26,422 bases of DNA from a virus (IMGVR_UViG_2541047936_000001), one strand, 5' to 3'; shown: positions 9,070 through 14,299, numbered from the stretch's first letter. Notes: generated by a model not told the origin, from the sequence alone. Program-made: numbers and translations.

Positions 9070-10015
9070 ACGCCCACTGGTTATAAACACGCAGCTGGCA
9101 ATGAAAATTGGCTTAAACGAAGCCATTGTTTTGCAACAACTGCACTACTGGTTGAGAGATACCAACTCCGGCATGGAATGTGATGGTGTTCGCTGGATTT
9201 ATAACACAACGGAACAATGGCTGGAACAGTTCCCATTCTGGTCAGAGTCAACGTTAAAGCGCGCGTTTGCAAGTCTGAAAACGCTGGGGCTTTTGCGTTG
9301 TGAAAAGCTCAATAAATCAAAGCGCGATATGACCAATTTCTACACGATCAACTACGGGAGCGAGCTTTTAGATGGTGGCAAATTGAGCGAATCCATCGGT
9401 TTAAAATGCGCCGCTCCATCAGGTCAAAATGACACGATGGAAGAGGTCAAAATGAAACGCTCCATTGGTTCAAAACGACTCAATGTCATCGGGTCAAAAT
9501 GGCCTGATGATCTTACAGAGAATACAACAGAGATTACTACAGAGAATAAAAAGACTTCTCGTCCGGAAGCTTCGCAACCGGACCCGCAGACGGTTGAACA
9601 GGATTTTTTAACCCGACACCCTGACGCGGTTGTGTTCAGTGCGAAAAAACGCCAGTGGGGCAGCCAGGAAGATTTGGCGTGTGCGCAGTGGATCTGGGGG
9701 CGAATCGTGAGTCTTTACGAGCAGGCCGCCAGCGATGATGGCGAGATTTCGCGACCGAAAGAACCCAACTGGACCGCATGGGCCAACGACGTGCGCACAA
9801 TGCGGATGCTGGATGGCAGAACTCACAGACAAATTTGTGAAATGTTTGGTCGGGTGCAGCGGGATCCATTCTGGGTAAAAAATATCATGAGTCCGTCAAA
9901 GCTTCGCGAAAAATGGGATGAACTGGTTATCCGCCTGGGGCGTTCGTCTGTACAGCGTTGTGTGAATCATATTTCTGAGCCGGATACCGAAATTCCGCCG
10001 GGCTTCAGGGGGTAA
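9050..10015 (+). CDS. Phage replication initiation / replisome organizer protein (O-like N-terminal domain)
   Basis: Start taken as ATG 9050 (MSLLFAERPLVINTQLAMKIGLNEAIVLQQLHYWL); N-terminal replisome-organizer-like motif. Confidence 0.6.
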   Translation: MSLLFAERPLVINTQLAMKIGLNEAIVLQQLHYWLRDTNSGMECDGVRWIYNTTEQWLEQFPFWSESTLKRAFASLKTLGLLRCEKLNKSKRDMTNFYTINYGSELLDGGKLSESIGLKCAAPSGQNDTMEEVKMKRSIGSKRLNVIGSKWPDDLTENTTEITTENKKTSRPEASQPDPQTVEQDFLTRHPDAVVFSAKKRQWGSQEDLACAQWIWGRIVSLYEQAASDDGEISRPKEPNWTAWANDVRTMRMLDGRTHRQICEMFGRVQRDPFWVKNIMSPSKLREKWDELVIRLGRSSVQRCVNHISEPDTEIPPGFRG

Positions 10016-10055: not shown

Positions 10056-10478
10056 GTGGCAAAAGTTTTTACACAAGAAGAGCGGGAAAAAATTAAAGGG
10101 CAGGTTGTTGAACTCGTACGCCGGAGTGGGCGTGAGACGTTACGGCAACTGGAAGTCAAGACAGGTGCGACAAGATATCTGATGAGCGTTCTCGCAAGAG
10201 AGCTGGTTGCCAGCGGCGATGTATACAACTCTGGTTACGGGTTATTCCCGTCTGAACAGGCGCGTAAGGACTGGCAAAATGCCCGTAAAAAGCTCTCAAG
10301 GGCAAAGCTGAAGGAACCATCTGCGGTTGATCCGGACCTTATCTGGTCATTACCTGACGGAGAAATACGTCGCTACGACAGGCGTCAGAACATAATCTGT
10401 CGCGAGTGCCGGAAGAGTGAAGTTATGCAGCGCATACTAGCATTCTATCAGGGAAATGCTCGATATTTATTGAAGTGA
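10056..10478 (+). CDS. Hypothetical protein (140 aa), GTG start with AGGAGG Shine-Dalgarno
   Basis: ORF track; SD at 10046-10051. Confidence 0.5.
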   Translation: MAKVFTQEEREKIKGQVVELVRRSGRETLRQLEVKTGATRYLMSVLARELVASGDVYNSGYGLFPSEQARKDWQNARKKLSRAKLKEPSAVDPDLIWSLPDGEIRRYDRRQNIICRECRKSEVMQRILAFYQGNARYLLK

Positions 10479-10678
10479 TGAGATTAAAGTTTATTAGTTC
10501 AGATATTGATTGGCTCTTTTGTGGAGTAGGGTAGAGTTAGTGTGTTTGTCTGCTTGGTGCCAGCAGCGGATATGTTTAACAACAGAAAGCATTCAGCATG
10601 GTTAGTGGATTTGCAAAGTGGATTAGGATTTGAGAAACTTTGATGAAGTTGTAAAGCTTGTTTCTATAAAAATAGAAA

Positions 10679-10695
10679 TTTAACTAATAGTTAAA
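10679..10695. promoter_or_regulatory. Perfect 17-bp palindrome TTTAACTA-A-TAGTTAAA, 36 bp upstream of the 299-aa gene; candidate operator
   Basis: Read directly. Confidence 0.35.
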
Positions 10696-10730
10696 CACAC
10701 CTCCAGCTTCATTGAAAAGGATTATTAGCT

Positions 10731-11630
10731 ATGATTGATCCACTTATTAGAAACTTACAGAGTGATATTGCACTACTCCAGCTTTATATCGCGCAACGCA
10801 AACAGGCAGGCTTTCATGACATGGAAAGAATAATTGAGTCATTGACCATCTTTATGTTTCGCGCGCTGAAAATGGGTGAACTGGTAAACATGAATCAGAT
10901 TAAAGTTAATTTTCCCGCCATTGATTTAGCTGATAATAAAAACATGATAGCAGTTCAAGTTACTACGAATGCAAGTCCAGCAAAAATTAAAAAAACTATC
11001 GAATCTTTTGAGAAAATAAATGAAATAGGAGAGAGTCTGAAAGATAAATACTCTACTTTATATATTTTTGGTTTTTGTAAAGCCTCAAGATACCTAACTC
11101 CAAGTTATTGTAAAATAATCGACCCCAGCTATTTCGTGAATGAACTTTGCGATAAAGCAGATGAAGATATGGTCCAGGATATGATTGACGCCATTCGACG
11201 CCATCATGATTATACATCATTACATCCATGGAGTGATAAAGATTCACTCGAAATTATACTCAATATTATTAATCGCAATGCAATAAAACATCGGATGAGT
11301 TGCGAAGGCAGTCTGTCTGATATGCTCACTGGTTTAAAAGAAATTAATGAAGTAATTACAAAAGGAACAATTCAACGTAAGCAACGTTCAAAATCGATAT
11401 CTGACTTCAAAGATCAAAGCATGGTGAAATTTATGAGAGGTGTAATGGATGATTTGTCTGTTATTCAAGCCATAGTGAACAAATCTAAAGTTAACCAAGG
11501 TGATATGGTTTATATAAGCCATGAAGATATGATTAATATTGATAAATTAAAAGCTAAAATAGCAAGTGATTCATCAGAGATTGCAAGGCTAAATAATATT
11601 GATATAACACTAAATGTTGTTGATTTATAA
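10731..11630 (+). CDS. Cargo protein (299 aa), soluble; N-terminal ~125 aa resemble a SMEK-type N-terminal domain of defence-associated proteins; C-terminal ~170 aa unassigned
   Basis: ORF in ~33% GC DNA; motifs NFPAIDLADNKNMIAVQVT...KIKKTIESF; AAGGA Shine-Dalgarno. Confidence 0.7.
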   Translation: MIDPLIRNLQSDIALLQLYIAQRKQAGFHDMERIIESLTIFMFRALKMGELVNMNQIKVNFPAIDLADNKNMIAVQVTTNASPAKIKKTIESFEKINEIGESLKDKYSTLYIFGFCKASRYLTPSYCKIIDPSYFVNELCDKADEDMVQDMIDAIRRHHDYTSLHPWSDKDSLEIILNIINRNAIKHRMSCEGSLSDMLTGLKEINEVITKGTIQRKQRSKSISDFKDQSMVKFMRGVMDDLSVIQAIVNKSKVNQGDMVYISHEDMINIDKLKAKIASDSSEIARLNNIDITLNVVDL

Positions 11631-11944
11631 TTGTCGATTTAGCAAAACAGAGAATGCTTTGAAAGTTTCACCGAGAAATATTTATTGTGAACCTCCTTAT
11701 TGTTTATCGACTTTTACTCTCCGCTCATTGCAGTACTGTCGGAGAAGGCTACTATGTACAAGAAGCAGCTAACATAAGCGAGCATCACTATTGATATTAG
11801 GAAGAGTATATAAAAACTTCATGCTGAACCTTACAAAAGTAGGTAAACCGGCAATGGCCTAAGTGGCAGGGTCATGTTGATCCGGCACTGCCGAGCTAAT
11901 AATTAACAAGCAAATCACTCTTTCTAATAATTTGTTGAAATAAA

Positions 11945-12604
11945 CTAAATATGTATATGTTTACCAACAACCACATATGAACTACCTGCTTTGCTCCATG
12001 ATTTTATTATTTCTAAATTATTATCTGAGCATATTTTACTTACAGTATCCACATCTAATAAACCATAGTAGAAAGCATTGCGAGAGTTTTGGTATATATA
12101 CCCATGCAAATGTTTAATACCGCTCTCGTACCTCTTGAAATAAGAACTTTTGTATTGATTGACAATCAGTGCTTCACCATCACTCTTTAATAATTCTCTA
12201 ATCGCACTGAGGACTTTGTGAATTGTGGATTCACATGGAATTGCGGAAAGCACGTTTGCGCAAAGTATGAAATCATAATGATTTGTTATTTTATCTATAT
12301 TTTCATAAGAAACAATATTAGCATTCTTATAGTTATTTATCACGTAATCTGGAATCGTGGTTTGTACACCTCTGATAATTTGCACTCTTTCTAGTTGTCT
12401 TCTGGAATCTAAAAATGTCACAGTTTCAAATTTATTTACTAATTGTTCTGAATATCTAAGTTTTCCACATCCAAAATCAAGGGCATTGCCATTTTTATTA
12501 GTGCTTTCAATCTGTTTACAGAGATAGTTAGATGGCATAGTGTGCGGTTTCGCTGCATTTTCTGAACGTATGTTTATTCCATTTATTTTGTAATTCAAAA
12601 TCAA
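11945..12604 (-). CDS. Small class I SAM-dependent methyltransferase (TehB/TPMT-like fold); true start probably the second TTG (12598)
   Basis: Motif I ALDFGCGKL, acidic TFLD, YDFILCANVLSAIP, KSDGEALIV; no DPPY/NPPY DNA-MTase motif seen; GAGG 6 nt before second TTG. Confidence 0.75.
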   Translation of the reverse strand: MILNYKINGINIRSENAAKPHTMPSNYLCKQIESTNKNGNALDFGCGKLRYSEQLVNKFETVTFLDSRRQLERVQIIRGVQTTIPDYVINNYKNANIVSYENIDKITNHYDFILCANVLSAIPCESTIHKVLSAIRELLKSDGEALIVNQYKSSYFKRYESGIKHLHGYIYQNSRNAFYYGLLDVDTVSKICSDNNLEIIKSWSKAGSSYVVVGKHIHI

Positions 12605-12610
12605 CCTCGT

Positions 12611-13318
12611 TTAAAAAATATTGTTATTGTTAAAGAATTCTTTTATTTTGCTATCAGGTATTTGTCTTACTTGGCTTTCTGTTCTTGGTTTAACTGATGC
12701 TATGAAAATAAGGAAGTCAAATGCGACAAGAGAAATAATCCACAACCAAAGATTAATTAAAGAGCCAGTAACAGAGAATATATTTGTTAATTTGGCGATA
12801 CTTATTATTAAAATAGTAACAAATGCGATTACTGTATGTTCAAAGAAAACCCAAAAGTAATAAACTTTGTTCCAGAAAAGTTCAACGTAATGTTTGTCTT
12901 TTAACTCTTTAACTTCTGGGTAATACAGTTTACTCATTACCTTGTGAGATTCATCAGTAGTTAATTTTCTCGTAACGCCTGCAATTTTTGCTAATGGTTT
13001 AATAATTAAATGACTATCCCACATCTTCCTTATTCCAATAATTTTTGCTACATTATTATGTAGATCTAAAGCTCCACTAATTACTGACCAAAAAACTGAA
13101 GATGCAATTGGTAATATGCCAAAGGTTAATATCCATTTAATAAATTCCTCGTAGTCTTTAACGGGGGGGATATACTTGGCATTAATGCCAACCAATGGCA
13201 TGTAGCCATAAATGACTAATGATAGGTAAAATATAAATGTAGTAATAAAAGTCGCCTTATGGAGCATAGGCAACATTTCATTATAACTCTTTGGTGGTTC
13301 TAACATTTTACTCTCCAA
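12611..13318 (-). CDS. Integral membrane protein (235 aa, about four predicted TM helices), first gene of the operon with the methyltransferase
   Basis: Hydrophobic stretches TFITTFIFYLSLVIYGYMPLVGI, WILTFGILPIASSVFWSVISGAL, YYFWVFFEHTVIAFVTILIISIA, LINLWLWIISLVAFDFLIFIASV. Confidence 0.7.
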   Translation of the reverse strand: MESKMLEPPKSYNEMLPMLHKATFITTFIFYLSLVIYGYMPLVGINAKYIPPVKDYEEFIKWILTFGILPIASSVFWSVISGALDLHNNVAKIIGIRKMWDSHLIIKPLAKIAGVTRKLTTDESHKVMSKLYYPEVKELKDKHYVELFWNKVYYFWVFFEHTVIAFVTILIISIAKLTNIFSVTGSLINLWLWIISLVAFDFLIFIASVKPRTESQVRQIPDSKIKEFFNNNNIF

Positions 13319-13747
13319 ACACTCAAAAAAAAGCTAATCTTCTATAATAACGAAATTCAGCTGGCACAATTAAAGATTAATTGCCACCAATTTCTTGATT
13401 TTATAATTTTATCTAAATGTTTTTGATTAATCTAGTCCTAAAAGAAACCTACTGCATAAATATTTATGCTGATGACCCACTCCCTGTTCGTTAACACATA
13501 GCAACGTTAGTAATGCATCCTAAGTGATCAATATTTTTGCTAGCTTCATCTGCTCGCTCAAAGGGAACTATAATGTTGGCTTGCGTGTGACTTGGCATGT
13601 TTAAAGAAGTGCTGGTGGTGACTGGTTGCTGTTTTCCATTTCCACAGAACAAAATCATAGAAACTATACCCAGTAGTTGTATTGAATCACTGACGAGACA
13701 GCCTCATATTTATCAGGACTGGTGTACGTCCAATACAGGAGGTTGTG

Positions 13748-13837
13748 GTGCTGGTTCTCAAATGTGCGCTGGCTATTGCTGCTGTAATGGCAATTTATTG
13801 TCTTGCTGTTGTTCTTATGGATCACCTTTCTGATTGA
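13748..13837 (+). CDS. Candidate small hydrophobic peptide (29 aa: MLVLKCALAIAAVMAIYCLAVVLMDHLSD), GTG start with strong Shine-Dalgarno
   Basis: AGGAGG at 13737-13742, 5-nt spacer, GTG 13748; +1 frame relative to the 78-aa Cys-rich ORF. Confidence 0.35.
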   Translation: MLVLKCALAIAAVMAIYCLAVVLMDHLSD

Positions 13838-14048
13838 TTTCATATTGGCGAGGTAACGGTAGTTAAGTAGAATTGCTGCGGGTGCTTGAGGCTATCTGCC
13901 TCGGGCATCAACACCAAAGGCAGATAGAGAAAAGCCCCAGTTAACATTACGCGTCCGGCAAGACGCTTAACATTAATCTGAGGCCATATCTATGCTCTAC
14001 ACACGTAGGTTAGCCTCTTACGTGCCGAAAGGCAAGGAGAAGCAGGCT

Positions 14049-14204
14049 ATGAAGCAGCAAAAGGCGATGTTAATCGCCCTGATCGTCATCTGTTTAACCG
14101 TCATAGTGACGGCACTGGTAACGAGGAAAGACCTCTGCGAGGTACGAATCCGAACCGGCCAGACGGAGGTCGCTGTCTTCACAGCTTACGAATCTGAGGA
14201 GTAA
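14049..14204 (+). CDS. hokD: Hok-family type I toxin (51 aa), HokD/RelF-like
   Basis: MKQQKAMLIALIVICLTVIVTALVTRKDLCEVRIRTGQTEVAVFTAYESEE; AGGAGA Shine-Dalgarno at 14035-14040. Confidence 0.85.
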   Translation: MKQQKAMLIALIVICLTVIVTALVTRKDLCEVRIRTGQTEVAVFTAYESEE

Positions 14205-14274
14205 GAGACCCGGCGGGGGAGAAATCCCTCGCCACCTCTGATGTGTCAGGCATTCTCAACGCACCCGCATTTAA

Positions 14275-14299
14275 CCCGCTTCGGCGGGTTTTTGTTTTT
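14275..14299 (+). terminator. Rho-independent terminator after hok (CCCGCTTCGGCGGG + U-tract)
   Basis: Hairpin and T-run read directly. Confidence 0.6.

Follow-up and report, generated by a model that had tools for sequence, protein, structure and literature searches.

An AT-rich cargo island of a Qin-like lambdoid prophage as a probable composite of two linked modules, candidates for defense functions

In Escherichia coli K-12, the prophage e14 carries the genes ymfE (b1138, 234 aa) and ymfD (b1137, 221 aa), which abut on one strand beside lit in a block of 31-35% GC. A membrane protein gene followed by a gene for a small class I methyltransferase is also found in tehA-tehB, a core operon that functions in tellurite resistance. 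In short-Argonaute systems, SMEK/Mrr is the nuclease effector fused to APAZ (PMC10810196; bioRxiv 10.1101/2025.04.08.647717), as in SPARMA (SMEK-APAZ) of Kordia jejudonensis, while Epona of Vibrio integron cassettes, a single-protein defense factor with a nuclease effector, consists of Mrr_cat fused to a holin domain (bioRxiv 10.1101/2024.07.02.601686). Here we analyzed a stretch of 26,422 nucleotides of viral DNA (IMGVR_UViG_2541047936_000001), referred to as the window, in which an AT-rich island carries homologues of ymfE and ymfD (together ymfED) and a gene for a 299-aa SMEK-domain protein. Our comparisons strongly suggest that two modules make up this composite island; they are physically joined and transferred together, but do not demonstrably depend on each other. 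The best explanation for the whole, in which two independent cassettes were fused and both are candidate defense modules whose mechanisms we infer, is one that we hold with somewhat better than even confidence.

The initial annotation of the window, made from the sequence alone, had described an AT-rich block of about 3.1 kb in surroundings of about 50% GC. The GC profile agreed with this description, giving 32.9% for 10480-13600 versus 48.9% for the remaining window, with values of 31-36% from about 10500 to about 13500, down from 44-56%. A sister prophage that shares the backbone but not the cargo (L081) is homologous to the window up to 10568 and again from 13636, and the true cassette was therefore placed at 10569-13635 (about 33% GC versus 49% elsewhere in the window), very near the borders of 10480-13600 given initially. 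It occupies a slot that is bordered by the DUF977 gene and sok/hokD in a lambdoid prophage of the Qin/DicA type. As had been described, the island holds exactly three open reading frames (ORFs), and ORF calling reproduced both their coordinates and their convergent layout; each has 30.6-32.9% GC. The gene of the SMEK-domain protein, identified by domain models, lies at 10731-11630 on the plus strand and is followed by the spacer of the SMEK module (11631-11861), which the compared trio variants share as homologous sequence and which loci with ymfED only lack. The minimal ymfE-ymfD cassette (11862-13470, minus strand) comprises about 150 bp upstream, ymfE, ymfD and about 80 bp downstream. It contains the ymfE homologue (12611-13306, minus strand), encoding a 231-aa inner-membrane protein, and the ymfD homologue (11945-12604, minus strand), encoding a small cytoplasmic class I S-adenosylmethionine (SAM) methyltransferase; the gap between the two is 6 bp, or 12 bp with the RefSeq start. 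The RefSeq annotations for the island read "SMEK domain-containing protein", "class I SAM-dependent methyltransferase" and "hypothetical protein".

The convergent layout of the trio is kept in five locus sets whose flanks are unrelated on both sides, namely the window type, an EC28-type lambdoid prophage, where the trio is turned around with respect to the phage backbone, two other types of viral contig, and an IncHI2 plasmid of Citrobacter koseri that carries the trio in an integrase/recombinase island. Each set has its own sequence variant, with protein identities of 83-100%, and the spacer between the SMEK gene and ymfD is homologous in an alignment of three trio variants. In neighbor-joining trees, the trio SMEK genes are monophyletic, and within the trio clade the SMEK tree agrees with that of ymfED. 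Since the spacer is homologous and the trio SMEK genes are monophyletic, the association appears to have arisen once, and travel as a block, being traced to a single ancestral fusion, is weak evidence for functional coupling. Two SMEK-less ymfED loci (L031 and L033) nest inside the ymfED clade of the trio, a placement that is indicative only because the trees were not bootstrapped. Their homology to the window, at about 82% nucleotide identity, begins only at 11862-11870, inside the spacer, and this position is consequently taken as the joint of the two cassettes. The tree and alignment thus give an indication that SMEK may have been lost secondarily from some trio-derived loci, these two among them.

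Outside the trio, the modules are found separately. SMEK homologues of 68-82% identity are carried by Enterobacter islands, a Pseudomonas island, a conjugative element of Yersinia and a myovirus-like prophage, all lacking ymfED, and ymfED occurs without SMEK in e14, in P2-like prophages, in Vibrio and Marinobacter arrays and in Pseudomonas defense islands; everywhere outside the trio clade, ymfED lacks SMEK. The initial annotation had treated the three genes as one candidate module. They do move as a block in the five contexts, but SMEK and ymfED are also routinely found apart, and a single three-gene system was thus not supported, the separation affecting SMEK and ymfED while ymfE-ymfD is the sole invariant link among the three genes.

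The ymfE-ymfD link holds over a wide range of hosts and mobile contexts. In the window as in e14, ymfE comes first and ymfD follows after 0-6 bp, and in every locus examined a YmfD relative directly follows a YmfE relative, with a gap of 0-54 bp or an overlap. The lowest identities to the window proteins were 33-40% for YmfE and 41-50% for YmfD, and ymfED is low in GC relative to the host at every genome locus measured. Apart from the E. coli loci (window type, EC28 type, and e14 beside Lit) and the C. koseri IncHI2 plasmid island, the pair was located at the ends of P2-like prophages, just past ogr, in Providencia and Enterobacter asburiae; beside an integrase in Enterobacter cancerogenus; in integron-type cassette arrays with ParDE, Phd and RelE/MqsA-family toxin-antitoxin (TA) cassettes in Vibrio cholerae and V. 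parahaemolyticus; in an array of small co-oriented genes with insertion sequence (IS) elements and YoeB/YefM in Marinobacter; in Saccharophagus and Neptuniibacter; and directly past known or presumed defense genes in three Pseudomonas species. In Pseudomonas, the pair comes right after HamA and the DEAD-box helicase of Hachiman, or right after LmuA, LmuC and LmuB of Lamassu (PADLOC E-values down to 1e-237). A narrower YmfE alignment searched against the species representatives of GTDB returned only 7 loci. Taken together, ymfE->ymfD is an obligate, mobile pair.

The e14 locus is the closest known relative of the window pair: the two genes agree in order and orientation, and in both cases they abut at a prophage cargo position with about 31-35% GC; in both prophages the pair adjoins a single gene that is a candidate or proven abortive-infection gene. 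The neighbor differs, since Lit is divergent from ymfE in e14 whereas the SMEK gene of the window is convergent with ymfD, and the nucleotide identity between the two loci is only about 69%. Among 5,426 complete E. coli genomes, ymfED is carried by 434, of which 146 have the window variant, 5 a variant at 80-90% and 283 one at about 69% identity; every sampled row of the last class is the K-12/e14 ymfE-ymfD locus without SMEK.

Some neighbors of the pair are worth recording in their own right. In Pseudomonas psychrophila, a low-GC cluster directly upstream of ymfED (L072, 1642-6293) encodes a C5 DNA methyltransferase, an HD-CE protein, an ORC-CDC6-like ATPase and a CARF-like protein, and looks like an uncharacterized defense cluster. 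On the C. koseri plasmid pK820-1 (L084), a DUF4145 gene at 10318-10899 is divergent from ymfE, at the place where e14 has lit, and the V. parahaemolyticus array (L087) has another DUF4145 gene a few cassettes from ymfED.

The slot itself was compared by running a 6-kb query spanning the island against the same 5,426 genomes. Some part of the query matched in 4,852 of them and the entire island arrangement in 146. In prophage L081, the cargo of the slot is an annotated anti-phage dCTP deaminase; with the same flanks, the slot contains QueH, a KwaB-like protein and relBE in L083, and small genes of no known family with a degraded methyltransferase in L082. The Qin prophage of K-12 (L080) has flxA, ydfV and relBE at this position, and further E. 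coli matches list genes for DUF4209, an Sll1717 P-loop ATPase, Doc and KilA-N under the match. The initial annotation had also suggested that lambdoid phages often carry cargo at this position of the early region, and related prophages indeed carry defense or TA genes in the slot. The segment is horizontally acquired foreign cargo in a defense/TA hotspot of a Qin-like lambdoid prophage. It resembles prophage defense hotspots in combining a conserved backbone with variable cargo, the alternatives being the anti-phage dCTP deaminase, the KwaB-like gene and TA systems. Both modules are found in neighborhoods of validated defense genes. To our knowledge, and in the literature that we searched, neither the DUF977-to-hok/sok slot of Qin-like lambdoid prophages nor the two modules have been described as a hotspot or as defense systems.

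The 299-aa protein is soluble, as had been proposed. Its residues from about 1 to 145 match SMEK_N (PF21941, 79.9 bits versus a cutoff of 27, E=2e-22) and NF033859 (105.1 bits versus a cutoff of 30, E=1e-30), and the SMEK_N model was matched by all 55 aligned homologues. The PADLOC model Aga_REase, which is Argonaute-associated and 463 positions long, matched at residues 8-146 only (E=1e-20), and the family profile matches one solved structure, 26bh (E=3e-13), the Mrr domain of the K. jejudonensis Mrr-APAZ pAgo. The N-terminal 145 residues or so are thus predicted to form an Mrr-like PD-(D/E)xK nuclease domain, with invariant residues that include E36, D65, Q76, T78 and K85. The remainder, from about residue 146 to 299, is a conserved, family-specific, all-helical domain in the AlphaFold 2 (AF2) model. 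Its invariant residues include P166, D169, R182, E192, G193 and K221, with H165 and H187 nearly so. The family comprises 108 clusters of about 300 aa, is found throughout the Proteobacteria and is conserved over the full length, including both halves, at identities that fall to 31-45%.

The likeness to SPARMA is confined to about 140 N-terminal residues, which are homologous to the Mrr/SMEK nuclease effector and include the conserved NFPAIDLAD ... QVT ... K motif. The C-terminal half of the window protein is, in contrast, an unrelated helical domain that matches neither APAZ nor any other Pfam family, and no annotated Argonaute gene is found within 12 kb on either side of the island in the annotation of the identical E. 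coli C7 prophage. In the absence of both APAZ and an Argonaute gene, guide-dependent activation cannot apply to the SMEK protein. Epona, likened here by domain type only, is a small stand-alone Mrr-family nuclease with a second domain that is likewise mobile cargo; its partner domain is a membrane domain (holin), whereas that of the SMEK protein is soluble and helical. An RNAIKH motif in the C-terminal domain resembles the Rx4H motif of HEPN domains, but neither profile nor fold comparison gave a HEPN match, and no HEPN identity was therefore assigned.

SMEK homologues stand alone in integrase islands and beside SymE and TacA-type TA genes, SLATT_5 and a DUF4062 protein, and one homologue in a conjugative element lies near AbiGi and ArdC. 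In Pseudomonas (CP145799.1; L003, 6001-9736), a SMEK homologue with 68% identity is followed by co-directional genes for a 219-aa protein with a weak HEPN_RiboL-PSP match (E=0.004), a SLATT_5 membrane protein and a 309-aa protein; the set recurs on three metagenomic contigs and may therefore form a four-gene unit. The 219-aa protein was considered as an equivalent of YmfD or YmfE and rejected, as no similarity was found. In the tail-gene region of the myovirus-like prophage (L061, 8001-10381), which is another cargo slot, a SMEK homologue with 82% identity is convergent with a gene for a 439-aa DUF4062-domain protein.

Of the two minus-strand products, the methyltransferase shows 68% identity over the full length to YmfD of e14 (E=2e-113). 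It has 219 aa when read from a TTG at 12604 and 217 aa from the RefSeq start at 12598. Its initial description as a small class I SAM-dependent methyltransferase agrees with matches to Methyltransf_12 (35 bits) and Methyltransf_23 (34 bits), both over the Pfam cutoffs, and with a SAM motif; TehB of Pfam was passed weakly (24.4 bits versus a cutoff of 20.4). The motifs DFGCGK and YDFILCANVLSAIP are of the UbiG/TehB/Methyltransf_11 kind. In 40 YmfD homologues, the DxGCGK motif (D43-x-G45-C46-G47-K48) and D66 are invariant or nearly so, and an N-terminal ENAAKP motif is family-specific and invariant. This motif is lost from the 197-aa version of YmfD that is annotated from an internal Met on 734 contigs (protein cluster P0153), and that start is for this reason probably misannotated. 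The nearest relatives in the PDB are generic only, with E>=0.002 (protein lysine methyltransferases, TehB and UbiG), and the one PADLOC v2 match, to mad2, is weak and partial, covering the methyltransferase core (E=1e-4). DNA methyltransferases are marked by (D/N/S)PP(Y/F) or PCQ motifs, neither of which was found on reading the YmfD sequence, nor was a target-recognition domain. YmfD is thus predicted to be a small cytoplasmic methyltransferase of UbiG/TehB-like rather than DNA-methyltransferase type. A reading as part of a restriction-modification (R-M) system was rejected, since the methyltransferase matches families and PDB relatives of small-molecule or protein type only and pairs with YmfE, not SMEK, across taxa. 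An identity with TehB or TehAB was rejected as well, the NCBIfam TehB equivalog models scoring 28-29 bits versus cutoffs of 218 and 303.

The upstream gene, initially read as 12611-13318 and as encoding a membrane protein 6 bp from the methyltransferase, encodes a product with four predicted transmembrane (TM) helices, in line with that assignment, and with 60% identity over the full length to YmfE of e14 (E=1e-108). It has 235 aa from the alternative TTG start at 13318 and 231 aa from an ATG at 13306, the start chosen by RefSeq and conserved among YmfE homologues. The confident AF2 model (pLDDT 86, pTM 0.80) contains four long hydrophobic helices, with three shorter helices between TM2 and TM3. 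The central insert has 13 Lys and Arg residues and the C-terminal tail 5; these counts fit the positive-inside rule, and both parts are accordingly predicted to face the cytoplasm. YmfE gave no match in Pfam, NCBIfam or PADLOC, and a scan of 50 relatives revealed no consistent Pfam family. A profile search of 1.84 billion representatives recovered no more than 210 relatives, of which 15 had E<=1e-30. In its gene order the pair recalls tehA-tehB, although ymfED is mobile cargo and tehAB a core operon, and although the TehA-type partner has 10 TM helices whereas YmfE has 4 and is unrelated to TehA. The SLATT_5 neighbor of the Pseudomonas SMEK homologue had given the idea of a SLATT effector, which was rejected by BLASTP and by hhalign (probability 0.5%); SLATT_1 was matched by only one of the 50 remote YmfE homologues, at E=0.007.

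How the three genes might work was weighed against other explanations. The trio could form an integrated R-M-like system in which YmfD would methylate a target, SMEK/Mrr would attack its unmodified (or modified) form and YmfE would act as anchor or regulator. R and M genes are often convergent; moreover, the convergent trio with its homologous spacer is maintained at 83-100% identity in five unrelated contexts, one of them a conjugative plasmid, with apparently intact ORFs (full-length tblastn), and its SMEK and ymfED trees agree within the trio clade. However, with a single fusion the association was effectively sampled once, and each module exists alone, SMEK homologues at 68-82% identity and ymfED homologues at 34-86% identity, e14 included, with secondary loss in L031 and L033. 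The 283 of 434 E. coli carriers with the variant at about 69%, sampled as the e14 locus without SMEK, also argue against an integrated trio, as does the UbiG/TehB-type motif set of YmfD, which comes without a target-recognition domain. We regard an integrated trio as quite improbable. A somewhat better chance, though still a low one, is given to a role of ymfED outside anti-phage defense, with SMEK as an unrelated neighbor: the pair could be an addiction module with YmfE as toxin and YmfD as neutralizer, or a TehAB-like module for detoxification or membrane modification. A tight, small two-gene operon would suit a TA module, the pair resides amid TA cassettes in the Vibrio and Marinobacter arrays, and the window slot is the relBE slot of K-12 Qin; a membrane protein with a TehB-like methyltransferase, passing the Pfam TehB cutoff, recalls tehAB. 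Nevertheless, the TehB equivalog models failed widely, YmfE with its 4 TM helices resembles neither TehA nor any Pfam family, and direct adjacency to Hachiman, Lamassu and Lit is more typical of defense genes. Many TA modules are themselves defense systems, so that the TA and defense readings overlap.

Least of all do we expect the island to be decaying, H-NS-silenced junk that is kept by prophage linkage only, an explanation to which we assign a very small probability. It would account for the AT-richness, for the pseudogenes of the C7 prophage, among them a frameshifted integrase, and for the IS elements in several island copies. The three ORFs are nonetheless apparently intact in 146 E. coli genomes (>=99% identity) and in diverged variants at 83-91%, in both protein families dozens of residues are invariant across bacterial orders, and the AF2 models are confident. 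Concerning these IS elements, ISVsa5, an IS3-family element, ISApl1 and IS1A were seen inside the island of otherwise identical E. coli copies (H14-H16, H36, H50 and H115).

Returning to the explanation by two fused cassettes with candidate defense functions, we consider that the chances of a defense role for at least one module are about even, while our confidence in any specific mechanism is far lower. Cassette A (SMEK) and cassette B (ymfE-ymfD) would have fused once and then been passed around as a 3-kb block. The SMEK protein may be an abortive-infection nuclease that stands alone and regulates itself, and whose C-terminal domain would take the sensing or regulatory place of APAZ/Argonaute and free the nuclease upon infection; this sensing role is a guess, given that the domain has no recognizable relative. 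YmfD could dock on the cytoplasmic face of YmfE to give one membrane-anchored unit, and its methyl acceptor is more likely a small molecule, a lipid or a protein than DNA. At the inner membrane, such a unit might methylate a membrane-associated or phage-derived target or gate a membrane effector, and thereby shield the lysogen by excluding or aborting other phages or mobile DNA. It is a tentative proposal, more doubtful than probable, that ymfED, as present in gamma-proteobacterial defense islands, integron-type cassette arrays and prophages, represents a two-gene system against phages or mobile DNA that has not been described before, and that SMEK is another such system, made of one gene, in which the Mrr/SMEK nuclease effector of short Argonautes is reused with a new sensor domain; with the same reserve, and jointly with that proposal, we suggest that the combination of a non-DNA SAM methyltransferase with a four-TM protein has no counterpart among characterized defense systems.

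Several observations weigh against a defense function of the cassettes. Non-defense cargo, such as QueH and flxA, is also found in such slots, and residence in a hotspot amounts to guilt by association; in Neptuniibacter, ymfED lies amid housekeeping genes without visible mobile or defense context. The literature searched by gene names and RefSeq accessions assigns no function to ymfD or ymfE and yielded gene lists or noise only. Neither cassette matches any system of PADLOC-DB v2.0.0, and the C-terminal domain of the SMEK protein is without a recognizable relative in profile and fold searches. Finally, ymfE and a full-length SMEK homologue are absent from 50,697 sequenced phage genomes, as is the island DNA, and the island genes have so far been seen in prophages, islands and one plasmid only. 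That no named system could be matched had also been stated initially; this holds for the systems of PADLOC v2 but not for the single genes, two of which are homologues of ymfD and ymfE while the third contains SMEK_N. The screen of Vibrio integrons for defense genes (bioRxiv 10.1101/2024.07.02.601686) names no system of the island's composition.

If the proposed functions are correct, they would provide roles for the K-12 "y-genes" ymfD and ymfE, present in e14 next to lit, and a new defense logic in which a methyltransferase that does not mark DNA is coupled to a membrane protein. They would also mean that the nuclease effector of short-Argonaute systems circulates as a stand-alone protein with another sensor, which bears on the shuffling of effectors and sensors. 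As cargo of prophages and defense islands, the modules fall within a known kind, and the chance of ymfED being a truly new system of two genes is moderate. Since the roles are inferred, the genes already annotated publicly and the three-gene idea weakened, the island is a good and directly testable candidate rather than a surprise. Whatever the role of the modules, the DUF977-to-hok/sok slot of Qin-like prophages can be used to mine more cargo.

With regard to the flanks, a segment identical to the window is found in E. coli C7, in a Qin/DicA-type lambdoid prophage beside tRNA-Ser and mtfA with the order dicA, dicC, ydaT-like gene, O-like gene, DUF977, island, hokD, DUF968, rusA and Q. The position of the island after the replication genes and before hok, as first described, was verified by the annotated flanks. 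Upstream lie an annotated replication organiser gene (8996-10015) and the DUF977 gene (10056-10478, plus strand; RefSeq annotation of the identical C7 prophage), which is the last backbone gene left of the slot and is conserved across prophages with differing cargo. The right flank (13880-14204, plus strand; Rfam and annotation) is the first conserved backbone element past the slot and consists of the sok antisense RNA (13880-14054), a full-length family match to Rfam RF01794 with 114 bits versus a gathering score of 59, and the annotated toxin gene hokD (14049-14204). In the Rfam scan, the spacers of the island contained no RNA element, the sole match being sok, outside the island, and promoter and terminator scans gave matches no more numerous than in shuffled sequence. 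An isrK-like match at 14213-14294 is weak, with 25.8 bits under a gathering score of 50. A cysteine-rich ORF of 78 aa (…GCGAGSQMCAGYCCCNGNLLSCCCSYGSPF) at 13597-13833 on the plus strand crosses the right island junction; it is probably spurious but odd in composition. At the far end of the window, 25501-26000 has 66.8% GC, a GC skew of 0.21 and an AT skew of 0.40, unlike the remainder of this prophage.

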